Assembly (NCBI GenBank): GCA_963708295.1
Contig: CAVPSJ010000001.1
Span: 1 to 64,000 of the forward strand
DNA: 64,000 nucleotides
Source of the DNA: an uncultured delta proteobacterium
Lineage (GTDB): Bacteria; Desulfobacterota; BSN033; UBA1163
Direction: 5' to 3'
Part shown: piece after piece, positions 13,760 to 30,260 of the stretch
Numbering within the stretch: the first letter of the stretch is position 1
Layout: every line of letters begins with the position of its first letter
Position numbers and translations under genes: made by a program
The notes under the pieces: generated by a model
The model's input: only the letters and a program-made list of their open reading frames with translations
What the model was told of the DNA's origin: nothing
Databases searched by the model: none

Positions 13760-15196
13760 TTATTCTTCTTCCGAAACCAGCACTTCTTTCTTAATGTTAT
13801 ACTTCTCCATTTTGCCGCGCAGGGTGCTTCGATGAATTCCCAGCAGCGTCGCGGCCTTGAGCTGATTCCCTTTGGTTTTCTGAAGGGCACGGAGAATCAG
13901 TCCTCTTTCCAGATTCGAGATCATGTCGAGATCCTGTGAGGCCGCAGGGGCATTTGAGAGTTCTTCGAACAGCGCGTCGAGGAGGTCCTCCACATTCTTC
14001 TTGCTCAATTCCTCCTCGGCTTCTCGCTTCTCCCACCCTTTTTCGAAAAAGAGTTGATCCTCAAGGATCCATTCCCCCTGGCAGAGCACCCTGGCCCTTT
14101 TCAGGACATTCTCCAGTTGACGGACATTTCCGGGCCATTCATAGGAGTTAATCTTCTCCATCGCTGACGGAGTGATCCCCACCGTTCCCCTCTTCAATTC
14201 TCGGTCGAATTTTTTTAAGAAATAGGAAACCAGGTCCGGAATGTCTTCTTTCCGTTCTCTCAAGGGCGGAATGGTGATCGAGACCACATTGAGTCTGTAA
14301 TAGAGGTCTTCCCTGAACTTTCCGCTTGAAATCGCCTCCTCCAAATTTTTATTGGTGGCGACGATAAACCGGATGTCCACCTTGATCGTTTCCGTTCCCC
14401 CGAGCCTCTCAAAACGCTTCTCCTGGAGGACCCTCAGTAATTTGGCCTGGGTGGAGAGGGACATGTCACCGATCTCATCCAGAAAGATCGTTCCCCCCTG
14501 GCACTGTTCGAGCTTGCCGATTCGGCGAGAGATCGCTCCGGTGAATGCTCCTTTCTCATGGCCGAAGAGCTCGCTTTCAAGAAGGGTGTCCGGAATGGCC
14601 GCACAATTGACCGGAAGGAAAGGCTGATGGGAACGGAGACTGTGATGATAGATCGCCCGGGCGATCAGTTCCTTGCCCGTTCCGCTTTCTCCCCTGAGGA
14701 GGACCGTGACGTCGCTCGGGGCGACCTGGCCGATCATTTTGTAGATCTCCTGCATCCTGGGAGAGGATCCGACAATCCGTTCCTCTTCTCCCTCGGACAC
14801 GGCCAGGGGAGCGTAAGTGACTTCCTCTTTGATCAGTTTTCGCAGGGCGAGGGCTTTTTCAACCAGCCTTTTCATCTGCGGAATGGGGAACGGTTTCAGG
14901 ATATAGTCATAAGCCCCGTACTTCATGGCTTCGATGGCCGTTTCGGTCGTCCCGTAAGCCGTCATGATGATCACGAGGGACTTGGGGTCGATGAGTTTGA
15001 TCTCCTTCAGCACTTCGATTCCGCTTCGACCCGGCATCTTGATATCCATGATGATCAGGTCAGGCGAGCTTTCCCTGACCCGATCCAATGCCTCCGTGCC
15101 ATTTTGAGCCGTGAGGATCGCGTATTTTTCCTCCATCATCCTTTTCAGAGAATATCGGATCGATTTGTCATCGTCGACGATCAGAATGGTCTGCAT
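13760..15196 (-). CDS. Sigma-54-dependent response regulator (NtrC family)
   Basis: Receiver [35 protein letters not shown], Fis HTH; start moved to MQTIL. Confidence 0.95.
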
Positions 15197-15206
15197 CTTC
15201 TTCCTT

Positions 15207-16919
15207 TCATGAAACAGGGAGCCAAACCGTAAAAAGAGTTCCTTTCCCGGGTGCGCTCTCCACCTCGATCTTTCCGTCGTGCTGGTCGATGATCCGATGG
15301 GTAATGGAGAGGCCCAGGCCAATTCCTCCTTCCTTCGTAGAGAAGAAAGGGTCGAAGAGTTTATCGATGTCTTCACCGGGGATACCCACGCCGGAGTCCT
15401 GGATGGAGAGCTTCATCCATCGATCGTCCTCTGGAAGCCGCCCCTTCAACGACAGGTGGCCACCCTTCGGCATCGCCTGGACGGCGTTCAATAGAAGGTT
15501 GAGGATGGCCTGTTTCATCTGTTCGCGGTCCATCAAAATGAGGGGGAGAGGTTGAAATTCCTTTCGAACTTCGATCCGCTGTTTCTCGATTTGAGGCCTG
15601 AGCAATTGAAGGGTTTCTTCGATAATGGAGAGGACCTCCGCTTTCTCTAAGCGAGGGGGAGCCGGCTTGGCGAATCGGAGAAACTGATCGACGATTTCAT
15701 TGATCCGATTGATTTCTTCCGCGATGACCTTGAGGTCCTCCCGATGGGAGTTTCCAGCCGGATAATTTCCAGTCAGAGAATGGATCAGGATGTTGATGCT
15801 GGTCAATGGATTTCGAATCTCGTGGGCAATGCCTGCAGCCAACTGCCCCAAAGCGGCTAACTTATCGGATCGAACCAGCTGGGCTTCCGTTTTTCTCAAA
15901 TCGGCGGTCGTTTTTTGAATCTTTTCTTCCATCTGCAGGCTGAAGGCTTTGAGTTCCTGGTACATGAAGGCATTGTGAATGGCCAGGCCGGCCTGTTGGG
16001 CGTAAACCATCACCGATTCGAGGGCCTCCTTCGTAATGTTTTTGCTGGGCTCAACGAAGTCTGCGGCAATAGCTCCCAAGGCCTTTTCCTTAACCAGAAG
16101 AGGAACCACCACCAGGGAGTGAAGATTGAATTTCTCTTTCAGGACGGGGTTGACTCTTGGGTCTTTGCCGGCATCGGGAATCACGAAAGGCTGTTTCTCG
16201 AAAATCGACCGGGCAACGACACTCTCCTCCGGATCTAAGCGCAGCGTGATTCCCTTGATTCTTTCCTCATCGATTCCTACCGCCATTTTGCATTCAAGAG
16301 CATTCCTCGTTTGATTGACCAGGTAGAGACGGGCTCGGTCGAATCCGATATTTTTGGTCACTCCTTCCAAGACCAGTCTGAGAATCTCATCAATATCAAG
16401 GGTCTCCATCAGGCCGGATTTCTCAATGCAGACGGCTGCCTGATTGGCCACTGTCGAGAGCATCTCCTCTTCGTTTTTCGAAAAGGAATGGGGGTACGAC
16501 GTGTAGCAGTTGATCACACCGATGACCCTGTCCTTAATACACATGGGGACACTGAGCATCGAAACCAATCCTTCCTTTTTGGCCAGATCTTTTTCTTTAT
16601 ACAGAGGGTCTTTGAGGACGTTGAGAATGGCGATCGGCTGATTACGAAGAGCGACATGGCCCACCACTCCCTCTCCCAGGGCGAGGCTTCGCTCTTTCAG
16701 ATATTCTTCGCTGATGCTCTGGGTCGCCTTCAACTTCAGCCTGTGGTCTTTCTCATCCAGAATCCAAAGAGAACAGATCTTCGAGTCCATCAAATTAGCG
16801 GTCACGGTTACCATCAACCGCAGGACGTCTTCAAGATAGAGGCCGGAGGCGATGGCTTTGCTGATCTCCAGTAAAGCATTGATCTCTTTGGATTCCGGGT
16901 TTTTCTGCCCTTTGATCAA
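15207..16919 (-). CDS. Cytoplasmic GAF-GAF sensor histidine kinase
   Basis: Two GAF domains; AHEIRNPL H-box, NLLLNAVQA, DSGVG, FDPFFSTK, GIGLGL; no TM segments. Confidence 0.92.
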   Translation of the reverse strand: MIKGQKNPESKEINALLEISKAIASGLYLEDVLRLMVTVTANLMDSKICSLWILDEKDHRLKLKATQSISEEYLKERSLALGEGVVGHVALRNQPIAILNVLKDPLYKEKDLAKKEGLVSMLSVPMCIKDRVIGVINCYTSYPHSFSKNEEEMLSTVANQAAVCIEKSGLMETLDIDEILRLVLEGVTKNIGFDRARLYLVNQTRNALECKMAVGIDEERIKGITLRLDPEESVVARSIFEKQPFVIPDAGKDPRVNPVLKEKFNLHSLVVVPLLVKEKALGAIAADFVEPSKNITKEALESVMVYAQQAGLAIHNAFMYQELKAFSLQMEEKIQKTTADLRKTEAQLVRSDKLAALGQLAAGIAHEIRNPLTSINILIHSLTGNYPAGNSHREDLKVIAEEINRINEIVDQFLRFAKPAPPRLEKAEVLSIIEETLQLLRPQIEKQRIEVRKEFQPLPLILMDREQMKQAILNLLLNAVQAMPKGGHLSLKGRLPEDDRWMKLSIQDSGVGIPGEDIDKLFDPFFSTKEGGIGLGLSITHRIIDQHDGKIEVESAPGKGTLFTVWLPVS

Positions 16920-16972
16920 AGGGGCCTCCTATTTTTTTCTATCATAAACGAAATCCCCGATTTTTCAAAATG

Positions 16973-17008
16973 AAAAAGGGGATACCGGTATCCTGCGATA
17001 TCCCCTTT
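16973..17008 (-). terminator. Intrinsic terminator after gdhA
   Basis: Minus strand AAGGGGATA...TATCCCC-TTTTT. Confidence 0.6.
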
Positions 17009-17046
17009 CGAATCAAAGATTTTGAATTTTAAGCTTCTTTCTTATC

Positions 17047-18294
17047 TTAGACCCAACCCCGCAGCTTGCAGGCTTCCGCTACCCTTGCCACGGAAACCAA
17101 ATAGGCGGCCTGCCGCATGTTGACCTTCTCCTTTAAATACATCTGGTAGACTCCGTGAAAGGCGCGGGTCATTTTCTGGTCGAGCCTCTCGTGAACTTCT
17201 TGCAGGGGCCAGTAAAAATTGTACGTGTTTTGAACTTGCTCAAAATAGGATACGGTCACCCCCCCTGCGTTGGCGAGGAAATCAGGGATCACGAAGACCT
17301 TGTTCTGATACAGGATGTCATCCGCTTCCGGGGTTGTTGGTCCGTTGGCCAGCTCGCAAGAAATCTTGCACCGGATTCGATCTGCGTTTGCCGCGGTGAT
17401 CACATTTTCAAGGGCCGCCGGGAAAAGAACGGTGACCTCCAGCTCCAGGAGTTCTTCGTTGCTGATGTTCTCGGCTCCCGGGAATTTCTGGAGACTTCCG
17501 GTTTTGAGCTTGTAATCCACCACCTGCTTCGGATCTAACCCCTTTGCGTTGTAGATCCCTCCCTGGGAGTCCGAAGCGGCAATCAGTTTAAGTCCAAGAA
17601 TCTCGCTGCCCAAAAGAGCTGCGTATTGACCGGCGTTTCCAAAGCCCTGGACCGCCATGGGTTTGTCCCGGAGATCGATGTTCAGTAATTTGGCCGCTTC
17701 ACGCATCACATAGACGCCGCCCCGCGCCGTAGAATCTCCTCGTCCCTCCGATCCTCCGAGGGGAATCGGCTTCCCCGTGATGACACCGGGATGATGATGT
17801 CCGACGATCGTCTCATACTCGTCCATCATCCAGGCCATAATCTGAGGGGTTGTATAGACATCCGGAGCGGGCACGTCTTTCGAAACCCCTAGCGTCGAGG
17901 CGATGGCCCTCATATGAGCGCGAGCCAAACGCTGCTTCTCGCCCTCCGACATCCATTTCGGATTGCAGGTGATGCCTCCCTTTCCTCCTCCCAGGGGGAT
18001 ATCCACCACGGCCGTCTTCCAAGTCATCCAGGCAGCCAGGGCGCGGACGGTATCGATGGTCTCTTCCGGATGCCATCGGATGCCGCCCTTGGCTGGCCCC
18101 CGGGCCGTATTATACTGAATCCGATACCCATGGAATATTTGAACTTTTCCGTCATCCATTTGGACAGGTAGCGTTACCCGCAGCTCTTGTTGAGGCCACC
18201 GAAGCAGATCATGGGTGGCTAGGTCCAAACCTAGTCTGTCCGCCGCAACATCCAGTTGCGCCTGTGCAATCTTGAAGGGATTCAACTCTGCCAT
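17047..18294 (-). CDS. gdhA: Glutamate dehydrogenase (Glu/Leu/Phe/Val family)
   Basis: GPAKGGIR, GGGKGG, DVPAPD, QGFGNAG, ANGPTT, ANAGGV. Confidence 0.93.
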   Translation of the reverse strand: MAELNPFKIAQAQLDVAADRLGLDLATHDLLRWPQQELRVTLPVQMDDGKVQIFHGYRIQYNTARGPAKGGIRWHPEETIDTVRALAAWMTWKTAVVDIPLGGGKGGITCNPKWMSEGEKQRLARAHMRAIASTLGVSKDVPAPDVYTTPQIMAWMMDEYETIVGHHHPGVITGKPIPLGGSEGRGDSTARGGVYVMREAAKLLNIDLRDKPMAVQGFGNAGQYAALLGSEILGLKLIAASDSQGGIYNAKGLDPKQVVDYKLKTGSLQKFPGAENISNEELLELEVTVLFPAALENVITAANADRIRCKISCELANGPTTPEADDILYQNKVFVIPDFLANAGGVTVSYFEQVQNTYNFYWPLQEVHERLDQKMTRAFHGVYQMYLKEKVNMRQAAYLVSVARVAEACKLRGWV

Positions 18295-18320
18295 GTCTTG
18301 TTCTCCTTTTCTGAGATGAG

Positions 18321-18380
18321 TAATAAAAAAAGGGCGCCAAATTTCTTTGACGCCCTCGTCTTCAATACGGCATTGTATTG
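18321..18380 (-). promoter_or_regulatory. ANTAR-binding twin-hairpin antitermination switch with overlapping intrinsic terminator
   Basis: Minus strand CAATAC-AATGCC-GTATTG, aa, GAC-GAGGGC-GTC; hairpin 2 overlaps terminator AGGGCGTCAAA-gaaa-TTTGGCGCCCT-T run; ANTAR gene adjacent. Confidence 0.85.
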
Positions 18381-18390
18381 GTTAACGGCC

Positions 18391-18418
18391 ATTATATGAT
18401 ATTTTGAATTTTTGTCAA
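18391..18418 (-). promoter_or_regulatory. Sigma-70 promoter of gdhA
   Basis: TTGACA-16-TATAAT just upstream of the ANTAR hairpins. Confidence 0.8.
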
Positions 18419-18445
18419 GAAAATAATATTTCCTAAAACAGGTCA

Positions 18446-19147
18446 CTATCTCATTCTGTCTGTAAGGAGAATCGCCTCCGAGATCTCCCTCATCGTTTTC
18501 CGACTGTTCATGCTCGCCTTTCGAATCCTCCTGAACGCCTCTTCTTCATTCAGAGCATGTTGTTTCATCAATATCCCTTTGGCCCTTTCCACCAGTTTTC
18601 GAGTTTCCAACTCCTCCTGGATCACCTTGGTCTTTACCATTAATTCGGTATTCTCAATACAGATCGCCGCCTGGTTGGCGACGGAGGTGAGGACGGCTCT
18701 CTCCGTCTCACTAAATTCATGAGGATAGGAAGTGTAGCAATTGATCACCCCGATCACCTTATCTTTGACTGTCAGGGGAACACTGAGCATGGAAACCAAG
18801 CTTTCTTTTTTTGCTAATTCTTTCTCTTTGTAGCGGGGTTCTTTCAAGACATCGAGGATGGCCAAGGGCTTGTTCTGTTGCACTACGAAACCCACGATGC
18901 CCTCTCCCAGTTTTAAAGCCCGTTCCTTGAGGTATTCCTCGCTCATGGTTTGGGTGGCCCTGATTTTTAAAACCTTTTCTTTTTCATCCAAGATCCAGAG
19001 AGAACAGATTTTAGAGTCCATCACATTGGCGGTGACGGTCACAATCAGCTTCAAGATATCATCTAAGTACCGGTCGGAGGAGATGGCCTGGCTGATTTCC
19101 GAGAGAGCCTCAATCTGTTTCTTGGGGGAGGGTTTTTTGTATAACAA
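18446..19147 (-). CDS. GAF-ANTAR RNA-binding antiterminator
   Basis: GAF domain then LETRKLVERAKGILM..LNEEEAFRRIRKASMNSRKTMREISEAI. Confidence 0.93.
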   Translation of the reverse strand: MLYKKPSPKKQIEALSEISQAISSDRYLDDILKLIVTVTANVMDSKICSLWILDEKEKVLKIRATQTMSEEYLKERALKLGEGIVGFVVQQNKPLAILDVLKEPRYKEKELAKKESLVSMLSVPLTVKDKVIGVINCYTSYPHEFSETERAVLTSVANQAAICIENTELMVKTKVIQEELETRKLVERAKGILMKQHALNEEEAFRRIRKASMNSRKTMREISEAILLTDRMR

Positions 19148-19178
19148 CGGCGAACCTTCCTTTCACTATTGCGAAGCC

Positions 19179-19207
19179 AATTTACACAAAAGGTCTAAAG
19201 TTGTCAA
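19179..19207 (-). promoter_or_regulatory. Sigma-70 promoter of the GAF-ANTAR gene
   Basis: TTGACA-17-TAAATT. Confidence 0.65.
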
Positions 19208-19273
19208 CAAGCCGGAAGCGGTCGTGTGCGCAGTGTTTCCGGGCGGCATGTCTCGTCCGCCGTGGCTTTCTTT

Positions 19274-21914
19274 TCAGGGCCTCTTTGTATCCGCCCCATT
19301 TAGAAAGCACACGGCCTGGCGGTGTTGAGGATCGGCCACCACCGTAGCAAAGCCCCCGTCCGTGGTATTGGGAACGTCGATCAAGCGAAGAACCGGTTCG
19401 TATTCGCGGGCGTGAGGGAATAGCTCCAGGAGGATATTCGGCGCTCTTTCAAAGAATTCCGTCTGAAATTCCGTAGCGGCATCGTCCGGGAACACCGGCA
19501 GATAAATAATCTGGGCTTCCACCAAATCCTGGAAAAAGTGCGTTCCATAAGAGACTTCGGGCACATGGCCGGCTTCTTCCAGGGCCACTTCCACCAAGAC
19601 CGCTGCATTATCGATATCGGCGTAAGTCACATTGACTCCTAAATCAATGTTTCCGCTCCCCCATCGTCCTGGTCCCATCATCAAAATCTTAGCATCTTTG
19701 ATTGCCGGGTGGCGATTGATTTGTCCCACCAAACGTCCCAGGGATTTTTTCGCCTCTCGGGCCAGGCGATTGTATCCTTGGGGGTCGATGTAGAGTATGT
19801 AACGGATTTGCTCGACCGAGCCGCCACAGATCATGCGATGGGAGCGAAATAGAATCTGCTGGCGTTCCAGCGAGGTGGGCACCGACACAGCCACCATTGA
19901 ACCGGGGGTAAACAGCGGCCGGCATTGAAGCAAATTGATGCGGACATGTTTGCCGCCGTCGACAGAGGCTGTAAACTCCACGTCCACCGGCTGTCCATAG
20001 GCCTCTTCCAGTCTGGCCAACAGATTCCCCATGACCGGAACAAAATCTGTTCGTAGAATCAGGTTGTTAAAAGTGAGCACCCATTGATCCGCGCTTCCGC
20101 CCACCTTCCCGGAGACGGGGTCGTAAGGGTAATTGTCGCGCATGACCGAAACGAACATGGAAAGATGAGGATACTCATCTTTCGCCAATATGTCGGTCAA
20201 GAAGTGGGTCTCGAACTGGTTTGTCTCCAGGTTGAGCACATCCACCTGATGCTGAGAATACTTGGATACTTTCACCCCTACTTCCGGGCGCAGCTGGGGA
20301 TGGCTAATGGCGATCATGCGAGGGTAATCCGCACCGACCCGGTCCACCGCCCTTGTGCCCAGCCCAAAAACGAGGCGGGTGACGCCTTGCCGGGAATCGA
20401 TGCGGTCATTCCAGGCATAGAGGTTGCGCGAGAAGGCGACTCCGGCCAGCGTCGGGAAAGAAATACTGCCGGTACGGCATGCCCGAAACGCGCTGCACCA
20501 AAATCGCCATTTGTTCGTCGTTTGCGCCCAGACCACGCTTACTGCGATAACACAGGGCATCGGGGTTGAGAGCACTGGCGTACACCAACTTCACCGCACG
20601 CATGAAGTCATCCAGGCGGGCCTCGGGATTTCCCTGGTTCGTACAAAATATACTGCGATATTTTCCGGCAAAGGAATTGCCAAAACTGTCTTCCAGCAAA
20701 CTACTGGAGCGTACGATGATGGGTGCTTGTCCGTAGTAGTCCAGCATGGCACGAAACTGTTCTCGGATGGTTGACGAGAAACGACCCGCCAAAAAACGCT
20801 CCTCAATCTCTTGAAATTCATCGGGAGAAGTGGCGGAATCACAGGTCAGTCGCAATCGGAGCCTAAAAAGGTCGTTGTTGACCAGAAAGGTGAAAAAGAC
20901 ATCCGAGCCGATGTAAAAAGAGTCGTGGTCGTCGAGCCGCTCTTTGAAGTCAATCCCCGTCTCTTCCTTTTTCGCCAGCAGGATACGCTGCGCGAGCAAC
21001 ATGCCGGCGGCTTTTCCCCCGATGCGTCCGGCCCCGATCAAGCGCTTTCGAATCGCAAACAGATCTTCCAGGGTAAAATACCGATCCGCGAGCCGGTTAA
21101 AGACGGGATGATGTCCGATGAGCATTCGACCCAATTCCTGTTTCAAAGCCAACTGTTCGGGATCCCCTTCGTCAAAGCCGGATTGGGTTTTGCTGTAGTC
21201 GGAAAGCTTTTGGTAGACGCTTTCCCAGGGAGCCAGGGGTTGCGTCGTTTCGAGCAAGGGGGATTGCCGGGCTGAGGCCAATACTTCTGCGGCTTCGCGA
21301 CTTTGCGAAAGCGGGTGCCAGTTTTCTCCGGCGACGAGATGGGGCAAGAACATCTGTGGCGAATAACGATCCCACACCTTGATGGGGTGGATATGCATTT
21401 GGTCTTTGGCGTGATACACGTCCACAAGGATTTGCGTCGTATCCCGAATGCGGGCCACGGCGTAGTGGGCATGCTGGCCGCGCGTCAAGGCAAAATAGGC
21501 GACCGTATTCAACTCAAATAGAAAAGGGCAGGTGATCTGGAAGAAGTTGGCGAGCGATTCGTCGGTCGCCCACTCCACCACCAACGCTGACAGGTTGTCA
21601 AAGACGTACATGACCTCGGGGCCGTGCGCTTCAATAAGGAGGTGGACTTCGCGCGTAAAATAATCAAAGCCCAGGCTGGGGTCCAGCTCAATCATTTCCA
21701 ACCCCGGGTGAGAAGCCAACACGGGTGGGTGGGATGCAAAACGCAAATAGACCAGCCGCCGCCGGGCGGCAAGAGCAGCCTCGGCAAACGGCACAGCAAA
21801 GTGACGGTAATCCTCGAGGCGATCAACCTGCCAGACGACATTGTCGCCTAAACGGATTCCTTGTAAAACTTCGTCCAGGGCTTTAATCCCACTGGGAATC
21901 TCAGAAGTTTTCAT
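19274..21914 (-). CDS. PEP synthase/PPDK ATP-grasp-domain protein with degenerate KaiC/RecA-like N-terminus; one frameshift near 20455
   Basis: SGIKALDEVLQG; IGGKAAG, RSSSLLED..AGKY, MAILVQ, DVEF, LLQCRP; C-terminal GPGRWGS..SYGTHFF; the two ORFs join at YFFP/LAGVAFS. Confidence 0.85.
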
Positions 21915-22060
21915 TTCTTGCGTAAAGAGCCTCCGTTTCTGTATAAAGCTCCGTCTTTTGATCCCCTAAGCTCTTTAAGAGCCTGTGTGGATGCCCAAGC
22001 AGAAGGTTACAGAATTATTACACAAGTGGTTAGTTTTTTACAATGGAATTTTAGGTAGAG

Positions 22061-22212
22061 TTGACCCGAATAGGGGATTATGCTACATGTGAAGTATCTT
22101 CCCCTCGCTGCCTTGAAGGAAGGGACACTCTAGGGCTGGCCTGGGCTCGAGACCAAAATGAATGGAAGCGGTACCGGGCCCGGGTGACCGACCACGAGTC
22201 AGATCAATACTT
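22061..22212 (+). promoter_or_regulatory. Promoter and structured 5' leader of the LUD-purH-purD cluster
   Basis: TTGACC-17-TACATG with TGn; long hairpin CCTGGGCTCG/CGGGCCCGGG; RNA class not identified. Confidence 0.4.
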
Positions 22213-22243
22213 TTTAATTCTGCGAAACAAGAAGGAAGGAGAA

Positions 22244-22885
22244 ATGGATCCGATCAAACAATGGTGGGTTGAAGAAAGGGCGAAGAAGGCCGTTGAAAAA
22301 CTGGTGGCCCATGAATTCAAAGCCATCTATGCGAAGACGAAAGAAGCGGCAGCTCAAGAACTCTGGAAACACATTACCCCGGGGCAGAAGGTAGGGGTGG
22401 GTGGGTCCCTGACGATAAGAGGGCTGGGGATTTTGGAAAAATTGGAGGCGCAGGGTTATATCCTCTACGATCATTGGAAGCCCGGACTCTCAGCAGAGAA
22501 TATCCTTGAGATACGGAAGTCACAAATGAGCACGGATCTCTTCTTAACCAGTGCCAATGCCATCACCCTGACTGGAGAGCTGGTCAATATCGATGGGATC
22601 GGAAACCGTGTGAATTCGATCAATTTTGGTCCTGGAAAGGTCATCCTCGTTGCCGGTTATAATAAGATCGTTGAAGATGTTCAAGAAGGGATTAAAAGGA
22701 TAAAGAATGTGGCAGCCCCCTTGAACGCCAGACGACTCCATATCGATGTCCCCTGTGCGAAGGTGGGGAAGTGCGTGGATTGTAATTCGCCCAACCGGAT
22801 CTGCAGGGTGATCGTCATCCATGAGCGAAAACCTTCTTTGACGGATATCTTCATTATCCTGGTCGGAGAAGAATTGGGTTTTTGA
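22244..22885 (+). CDS. LUD-domain (lactate utilization LutC/YkgG-like) protein
   Basis: GVGGSLT, FLTSANAIT..GELVNIDGIGNRV, PCAKVGKCVDCNSPNRIC; RBS AAGGAG before ATG 22244. Confidence 0.9.
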   Translation: MDPIKQWWVEERAKKAVEKLVAHEFKAIYAKTKEAAAQELWKHITPGQKVGVGGSLTIRGLGILEKLEAQGYILYDHWKPGLSAENILEIRKSQMSTDLFLTSANAITLTGELVNIDGIGNRVNSINFGPGKVILVAGYNKIVEDVQEGIKRIKNVAAPLNARRLHIDVPCAKVGKCVDCNSPNRICRVIVIHERKPSLTDIFIILVGEELGF

Positions 22886-30245: not shown

Positions 30246-30260
30246 TGGCACCATCCTTGC
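30246..30260 (+). promoter_or_regulatory. Sigma-54 promoter (-24/-12)
   Basis: TGGCAC-CATCC-TTGC, a consensus match 84 nt before ATG 30344. Confidence 0.8.

Follow-up and report, generated by a model that had tools for sequence, protein, structure and literature searches.

What decides whether a polymerase that has started in the short gap before a glutamate dehydrogenase gene goes on to transcribe that gene? The question is raised by a stretch of 64,000 nucleotides from an uncultured delta proteobacterium related to sulfate reducers (GenBank assembly GCA_963708295.1, contig CAVPSJ010000001.1, positions 1 to 64,000; hereafter the window), in which the gene of a regulator with GAF and ANTAR domains is followed on the minus strand by gdh, the gene of an ELFV-family glutamate dehydrogenase (GDH). 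The two genes lie 151 nt apart, and this gap holds a promoter, two small hairpins and an intrinsic terminator, all of them on the minus strand. An earlier note, made from the letters of the DNA, had read this leader as an ANTAR antitermination switch. We find that its anatomy fits the published definition of such switches, that the sole ANTAR gene of the genome adjoins it, and that the motif is conserved with covariation in front of nitrogen genes of related organisms. We give a probability of roughly 85% to the reading that the gdh leader is an ANTAR-type transcription attenuator gating gdh.

The leader opens with a promoter (Table 1) that matches the sigma-70 consensus in 12 of 12 positions, as the TTGACA/TATAAT pair reported before suggested, and that is the sole 12/12 site among four promoter-like sites in 16800-19400. 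From its spacing, transcription would start near 18384, about 4 nt 5' of hairpin 1. This hairpin has the loop AAUGCC formerly assigned to it, although the AAUAC arm then described covers five of its six base pairs, and hairpin 2 is present in the form given (GAC-GAGGGC-GUC). The 5' arm of the terminator (18357-18346) consists of the loop of hairpin 2, its 3' arm and the next AAA. Because the terminator reuses these nucleotides, the two structures are mutually exclusive. The sharing of hairpin 2 and the U-tract thus stand as first described, with a terminator stem of 12 rather than 11 base pairs, and the structure qualifies as a rho-independent terminator. An attenuated RNA would be about 60 nt long, with its 3' end near 18325. 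All elements lie 5' of the ribosome-binding site, as had been stated; the Shine-Dalgarno (SD) sequence of gdh follows the U-tract and is in no predicted helix with the terminator, and control therefore appears to be transcriptional.

Targets of ANTAR proteins are defined by dual hexaloops, a G at loop position 4 and a second hairpin (P2) overlapped by a terminator (PMC8934654, PMC3369931; our comparisons with published systems draw on parts of the papers cited), and a 20-nt extension of the linker abolishes the action of EutV (PMC8934654). The gdh leader has two adjacent hexaloop stem-loops, G4 in both loops, the terminator overlap and a short linker. At loop position 1, where the published consensus is A in both hairpins (PMC8934654), it has A in hairpin 1 and G in hairpin 2.

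Table 1. Elements of the gdh leader and neighbouring features, in window coordinates
Feature	Position	Strand	Description
-35 hexamer	18413-18418	-	TTGACA; 16-nt spacer to the -10 hexamer
-10 hexamer	18391-18396	-	TATAAT; with the -35 hexamer 12/12 sigma-70 consensus
Hairpin 1 (P1)	18363-18380	-	6-bp stem CAAUAC/GUAUUG; hexaloop AAUGCC (18374-18369), A1, G4
Linker	18361-18362	-	AA, 2 nt between the hairpins
Hairpin 2 (P2, antiterminator)	18349-18360	-	3-bp stem GAC/GUC; hexaloop GAGGGC (18357-18352), G1, G4
Intrinsic terminator	18330-18357	-	12 pairs (6 G-C, one G-U); GAAA loop (18345-18342)
U7 tract	18325-18331	-	terminator tail
SD of gdh	18303-18306	-	GGAG; 3' of the U-tract
Start codon of gdh	18292-18294	-	ATG
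gdh	17047-18294	-	regulated gene; 415-aa ELFV-family glutamate dehydrogenase; Pfam ELFV_dehydrog 252 bits, ELFV_dehydrog_N 178 bits
Terminator 3' of gdh	16974-17009	-	14-bp stem and T-run
Promoter-like site of the kinase gene	16941-16968		beyond the gdh terminator
GAF-ANTAR regulator	18446-19147	-	one-component, 233 aa; Pfam GAF residues 28-165, ANTAR residues 177-227
GAF-GAF histidine kinase	15207-16919	-	Pfam; downstream of gdh
NtrC-like response regulator	13760-15376	-	sigma-54-dependent; Pfam; NCBIfam ntrC 498.6 bits, under the 558.6 cut-off

Predicted folding energies agree with this layout. The 98-nt leader folds at -31 kcal/mol, compared with -16.6 +/- 2.9 kcal/mol for 200 shuffled sequences (z -4.9; no shuffle was as good), and for the presumed transcript the fold of lowest energy, at -26 kcal/mol, combines hairpin 1 with the terminator. 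Taken singly, hairpin 1 contributes -5.2 kcal/mol, against -2.2 for hairpin 2 and -19.4 for the terminator. Given the last two values, hairpin 2 cannot compete with the terminator unaided, which, together with comparison of natural leaders, is the basis for regarding the leader as off by default.

Covariance models single out the same site. Model R1, built from 22 modules that include the gdh leader of the genome assembly to which the window belongs (G000), gives that leader 79 bits (E 3e-14), with the next match in G000 at E 0.9. To avoid circularity, model R2 was built without it, from 18 modules of other genomes, 16 of them in front of glutamate-synthase-like (gltS-like) genes and two cut off by the end of their contig. 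In the 4.9-Mb G000 assembly R2 has the gdh leader as its sole significant match (77.3 bits, E 5e-14; next E 0.8), so that the test by covariance model proposed in the earlier note bears it out. Within the window, with filters off, the leader has E 7e-16, and the next match (E 0.056) is the terminator palindrome read on the opposite strand. The second-best match in the genome, G000:C4:462089 (E 0.8-0.9), was dismissed, its surroundings having neither hexaloop nor terminator anatomy. Regular-expression scans of G000 for the hairpin 1 stem and for GAC-hexaloop-GUC with a T-run found these features combined in the gdh leader only; hairpin-2-like sites numbered 369, of which 24 had a T-run. A looser scan for twin hairpins with stems of at least 3 bp returned 929 matches, on both strands of 109 loci, and was set aside as too unspecific alone.

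The motif is maintained in relatives by compensatory change. Over its full length the regulator shares 83-93% identity with its orthologues in 27 genomes of its own family, and 72-76% with those in two sister families. Of 80 loci with such an orthologue at their centre, 24 contain an R1 match on the same strand within about 500 nt downstream. We aligned 22 modules of the family (hairpins and terminator) and, more widely, 31 twin-hairpin sites. In the 22 modules both sides have changed in 5 of 11 terminator pairs and in 2 of 6 pairs of hairpin 1; the terminator changes include a loop G-C pair that becomes A-U (G29/C52) and links the loop of hairpin 2 with the 3' arm of the terminator. In the 31 sites both sides have changed in 4 of 6 pairs of hairpin 1 and in all three of hairpin 2, whose stem passes from GAC/GUC to GAU/AUC, GGC/GCC and AAC/GUU. 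Paired cells amount to 95.8% in the terminator and 94.9% in the 22 modules overall (37-52% with slid partners), and to 97% in both hairpins of the 31 sites (16-48% with slid partners), percentages that are inflated by selection, the rows of both alignments having been picked by script for hairpins able to form. None of 500 shuffles reached the covariation score of the 22 modules. Both loops have an invariant G at position 4 (31 of 31 sites). At position 1 only purines occur (22 A and 9 G in the first loop, 24 A and 7 G in the second), while positions 2, 3, 5 and 6 of the hairpin 1 loop vary freely. The linker, 2 nt in G000, measures 2-4 nt throughout the 31 sites.

A separate observation concerns metagenome-assembled genomes labelled Anaerolineales, which contain a GAF-ANTAR gene about 68% identical to that of G000. 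Loci so labelled (L092 4793-4859, L094 3436-3501, L105 ~4149) have a twin hairpin 3' of this gene, with fully covarying stems (GGC/GCC in hairpin 2). The gene that follows the twin hairpin starts MVMGQLYEKDMSGCGIVGF and looks, from these letters, like an amidotransferase. The copies could reflect horizontal transfer or mis-binning.

The protein that would read the leader is encoded next to it. Its ANTAR domain scores 76.1 bits in Pfam, against a gathering score of 27.3, and its relatives among proteins of known structure are Rv1626 (E 1e-12), EutV (6e-11), NasR (3e-7) and AmiR (2e-3). Eleven residues of EutV are named as RNA contacts in PMC8934654, and we placed them on an ungapped phmmer alignment with a chain-index offset of +2 deduced from heptad residues. 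On this basis eight of the 11 are identical (R142, K143, K149, E160, R168, M172, N173 and R175), two are replaced conservatively (Y164 by F, K147 by R) and one differs (R177, here T).

The whole of G000 has a single match to the ANTAR profile PF03861, and it is this gene, immediately upstream of the gdh leader. Among 61 related genomes, R1 has a match (E<=0.001) in 37 and the ANTAR domain in 43: motif and ANTAR gene occur together in 34 genomes, the gene without the motif in nine, the motif without the gene in three and neither in 15, so that the two are concordant in 49 of 61 genomes and discordant in 12, a table that is descriptive and not a test, the genomes being kin. Neither motif nor ANTAR gene is present in G006 and G010, two genomes of the same genus that are 94-95% complete. 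Natural controls are offered by G027 (75% complete) and G033 (89%), whose gdh is 85% identical and in which the ANTAR gene was not detected; their gdh leaders have neither twin hairpin nor terminator. G010, G006 and G026 were uninformative as further controls, the search for gdh giving only paralogues of about 50% identity. Adjacency and co-occurrence together lead us to infer that this regulator and this RNA belong together.

The genes that stand behind the motif in relatives describe its use. The 84 matches of R1 form 64 leader units, of which 61 were examined; three of these had no open reading frame (ORF) call, and 58 were classified by the N-terminal motifs of the downstream gene, with representatives checked in Pfam. 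Most frequent are gltS-like genes (PF01645, 522-551 aa; 25 units), followed by glutamine synthetase (GS) genes, glnA, of a 440-aa type (12 units) and a 477-aa type (4 units), and by gdh (9 units); 50 of the 58 classified leaders thus precede nitrogen-assimilation genes. The others precede the GAF-kinase gene (3 units), a 107-aa protein of no family (3) or an aspartate-semialdehyde dehydrogenase gene (2), the last two classes including weaker matches (E 1e-4 to 1e-7) and each recurring in two to three genomes. In all 58 units an ORF starts 5-272 nt downstream; 52 of these starts have an SD sequence, and the other six were accepted on ATG alone.

Promoters in front of the module differ with the gene. 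Of the gdh leaders 9 of 9, and of the gltS-like leaders 21 of 25, have an exact TTGACA no more than 80 nt upstream of hairpin 1. A sigma-54-like motif (TGGYA-N6-TTGCW) precedes hairpin 1 by about 20-45 nt in 12 of 16 glnA leaders (L159, L164, L177, L179, L181, L186, L187, L189, L192, L194, L196 and L200), an arrangement that implies putative dual control of glnA by a sigma-54-like promoter and an attenuator. Furthermore, two complete hairpin-terminator modules stand in tandem in 20 of 64 units, including 15 of 25 gltS-like and 2 of 9 gdh leaders (for example L014 2439-2555, L017 2485-2604 and L042 4907-5024); in L007, L008 and L011 the first of the tandem modules has lost its U-tract.

From these observations we infer how the switch would operate, that is, protein binding, the dimer, the default-off state, the polarity and the part of the ligand. 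The consensus sigma-70 promoter would fire constitutively, giving an RNA that begins about 4 nt before hairpin 1. By default hairpin 1 and the terminator would form and the polymerase would halt at the U-tract, leaving an RNA of about 60 nt and no gdh mRNA. The GAF domain would act as the sensor, and in its active state the GAF-ANTAR protein would bind both hexaloops, probably, by analogy with EutV, as a dimer. Bound protein would keep hairpin 2, weak with its 3-bp stem, from opening and would thereby withhold the 5' arm of the terminator; with the terminator blocked, the polymerase would read into gdh. A gdh gene that would be off by default and opened by the neighbouring GAF-ANTAR protein is well supported by comparison.

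Several points weigh against this account and were considered with it. The loop of hairpin 2 starts with G, as it does in 7 of the 31 sites, and not with the published A (24 of 31). The stem of hairpin 2 is invariant within the family, its covariation coming from five more distant sequences only, and the selection of alignment rows, as noted, favours pairing; neither are the 61 genomes independent samples. A scan of 17000-22500 against Rfam 15 at E<=10 gave no match to an ANTAR-type family, whether or not Rfam 15 includes a model of ANTAR targets not having been established. Its top match was BjrC68 (23.2 bits, threshold 39), on the terminator only, and other matches (ar14, NEAT1_2 and the like) were rejected as weak, generic or spurious. 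Among public metatranscriptomes six runs had 7-11% of words, and the four that were mapped, as assembled Logan contigs, gave RNA contigs from relatives, all those listed being 90-99% alike, that cover coding parts of gdh and the regulator only; none extends over 18322-18479, and such contigs cannot reveal starts, ends or levels and so have no bearing on termination. There are also the nine genomes that have an ANTAR gene and no model match. In one of them, G001 (L019, G001:C91), the model finds nothing because N letters hide that half of the gdh leader which would hold the terminator, about 100-135 nt after the regulator stop. In another, G030 (L207, G030:C51, 3071-3084), the regulator stop and the gdh start are 13 nt apart; promoter, hairpins and terminator are all missing, and the two genes apparently form an operon. 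G026 is likewise a genome with the ANTAR gene and no match.

The reverse discordance bears on the rival that survives best, in which the attenuator is real and is operated by something else, be it a riboswitch that binds a metabolite, a different RNA-binding protein or a small RNA. Three genomes, G015 (70% complete), G024 and G028, have the motif and no detected ANTAR gene, which speaks for such an operator as it speaks against ours; in G024 an orthologue of the regulator is present as a fragment at a contig end, and in G028 (94% complete, 560 contigs) the gene was not found. The leader 5' of the terminator, however, is about 35 nt of two tiny hairpins, too small for the known aptamers, and the Rfam scan of 17000-22500 at E<=10 found no riboswitch. 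The motif itself fits the ANTAR definition, the neighbouring protein keeps the ANTAR contact residues, and joint presence or absence in 49 of 61 genomes ties the one to the other. We regard a different operator as improbable.

Still less probable is the view that the hairpin and its U-tract merely end the transcript of the upstream GAF-ANTAR gene, or insulate gdh from it, the hexaloop hairpins being coincidental. No other terminator lies between the regulator stop (18446) and gdh, and transcripts reading through the regulator gene would indeed end here. Yet a consensus promoter sits between this stop and the terminator, and its own transcripts would meet the terminator first. Moreover, the same module precedes genes far from any ANTAR gene, as in the glnA leaders, and hairpin 1 covaries though it has no role in termination, with its loop conserved at positions 1 and 4 and variable at the other four. 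Equally slight is the chance that the unit chiefly makes an independent small RNA, about 60 nt long, with a function of its own, for instance to titrate the ANTAR protein, with gdh transcribed from elsewhere: the default state would yield an abundant short RNA with both hexaloops from the consensus promoter, but no further promoter-like site lies between terminator and gdh start, an ORF follows within 272 nt in all 58 classified units, and the two roles are not exclusive.

An ANTAR-type attenuator being thus the preferred reading of the gdh leader, its closest published counterparts are the eutP, eutG, eutS and eutA leaders of Enterococcus faecalis, read by EutV/EutW (PMC3369931, PMC8934654), which have the same dual hexaloop with G4, a second hairpin overlapped by the terminator and a short, fixed linker. 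They differ in that position 1 of the second loop is G here. EutV, moreover, is a receiver (REC) ANTAR protein switched by a kinase through phosphorylation, whereas the regulator of G000 has a GAF sensor and no receiver, and EutV serves ethanolamine use, whereas the motif here precedes ammonium-assimilation genes. The nasF leader of Klebsiella oxytoca, with NasR (PMC3369931, PMC7496416), is likewise controlled by an ANTAR antiterminator that is one-component and senses a ligand, and its operon serves nitrogen assimilation; in NasR, however, the sensor is a NIT domain for nitrate or nitrite and the target is nitrate assimilation, in place of GAF and gdh. With GnfK/GnfR, Geobacter sulfurreducens (PMC2995071) is a 'deltaproteobacterium' in which ANTAR antitermination of nitrogen genes is added to sigma-54 promoters, much as 12 of 16 glnA leaders in relatives of G000 have a sigma-54-like motif ahead of the attenuator, but GnfR is a REC-ANTAR and not a GAF-ANTAR protein. 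The gdhA gene of Geobacter is described there as controlled by GnfM at a sigma-54 promoter and repressed when nif is induced, with no antitermination (PMC2995071). In contrast, gdh here has a sigma-70 consensus promoter and an attenuator, and its motif is common to glnA and gltS-like genes in relatives.

The mechanism has been known since Ramesh et al. 2012, and what we describe is an ordinary mechanism in a new setting. In that survey nitrogen genes of many phyla, glutamate and glutamine synthases among them, were predicted to have ANTAR motifs upstream. One example is Desulfotomaculum reducens, whose glutamate synthase genes have the same twin hairpin and terminator, with no GAF-ANTAR regulator assigned in the parts of the survey cited here. 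Its supplementary tables, in those parts, mention glutamine synthetase 25 times and glutamate dehydrogenase not at all, and it records no GAF-ANTAR protein as characterised at that time. A paper of 2020 names PAL and NasR as the only characterised one-component ANTAR proteins, and ANTAR literature of 2012, 2020 and 2022, so far as these texts are drawn on here, describes the GAF-ANTAR class as uncharacterised. A literature search, with most subscription journals outside its reach, found no characterised GAF-ANTAR protein, no gdh named as an ANTAR target and no account of the present system.

What might the GAF domain sense? Profiles of GAF, GAF_2 and GAF_3 match the regulator at 55-74 bits. 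The closest solved relative is the GAF domain of enzyme I-Ntr (EI-Ntr, PtsP; PDB 3trc and 3ci6, E 4e-16), a protein of modest identity and different output domain, and among NCBIfam models PRK11061 (PtsP) matches the GAF domain at E 4e-21, with NifA GAF weaker. Since in EI-Ntr that domain binds glutamine (PMC4848567), a ligand that reports nitrogen status is plausible. Glutamine or 2-oxoglutarate would be examples; this is a guess, which we hold at somewhat less than even odds.

A second GAF domain at the locus may read the same signal. The first GAF domain of the histidine kinase encoded downstream of gdh is 68% identical to that of the regulator over residues 7-173 (tblastn, E 5.5e-72, G000:C1:16401-16898), compared with about 25-35% for other GAF paralogues, and this likeness holds at 64-74% in most genomes of the family. 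Sequence comparison thus suggests that kinase and regulator may share one signal, a duplicated sensor feeding two types of output. We consider, as a yet more tentative idea, that the regulator and the kinase/NtrC-like pair read one nitrogen-status metabolite and act on it twice, at initiation from sigma-54 promoters and at ANTAR antitermination. The glnA gene, with its sigma-54-like promoter and attenuator, would then need both signals; gdh and gltS-like genes, with sigma-70 promoters, would depend on the RNA switch alone, and the genes for GDH, glutamate-synthase-like (GOGAT-like) enzymes and GS would be co-induced by one regulator. Such co-induction is unlike the situation in enterobacteria and Geobacter, where control of GDH and of GS-GOGAT is reciprocal.

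In G000 the regulon would have shrunk to gdh, with one regulator and one target. The assembly, 91.5% complete, yielded no glutamine synthetase (PF00120), nor any glutamate synthase (PF01645) that convinces. GS is present in 5 of 5 relatives checked, and its absence from G000 may reflect a gap in the assembly or a true loss. In G008 glnA lies in a 1.7-kb stretch that has no counterpart at the syntenic spot in G000 (window ~21920-22229) or in G034; G034 has glnA elsewhere. The gltS-like gene is absent from the position between regulator and gdh in G000, G034 and G008. In G016 and G020 the order after the regulator is leader and gltS-like gene, then leader and gdh: G016 has its regulator some 10 kb upstream of both genes and its kinase after gdh, and G020 has its regulator next to them and its kinase some 3 kb past gdh.

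Around the leader itself, gdh is monocistronic because it has a terminator of its own (17009-16974), beyond which the kinase gene has a promoter-like site. The top NCBIfam match of gdh is GdhA_Arch, at 603 bits and under the cut-off of 750. Three sigma-54-like -24/-12 motifs occur in the window, at 30246 (+), 29883 (-) and 25156 (-), and could be candidate targets of the NtrC-like regulator. Upstream of the GAF-ANTAR gene two overlapping ORFs (19274-20575 and 20406-21914, both on the minus strand) each match PPDK_N, of the family of phosphoenolpyruvate-utilising enzymes. The point at which they are split differs in G034 and G008, and the split could stem from frameshifts due to sequencing errors or from a truly split or decaying gene.

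The gdh leader leaves our knowledge of how ANTAR switches work unchanged. ANTAR antitermination is understood from regulators with a receiver (EutV), a pseudo-receiver (AmiR), a NIT domain (NasR) or a LOV domain (PAL), and the locus provides a minimal test bed for the GAF-ANTAR class, with one regulator, one 60-nt target and one reporter-friendly gene, in which the regulator is 83-93% conserved across a family of uncultured Thermodesulfobacteriota. The identity of the GAF ligand would reveal how nitrogen status is sensed in abundant anaerobes of sediments and wetlands. Finally, a switch common to gdh, glnA and gltS-like genes, together with its layering on sigma-54 promoters, would map the nitrogen regulon of a lineage without genetics.

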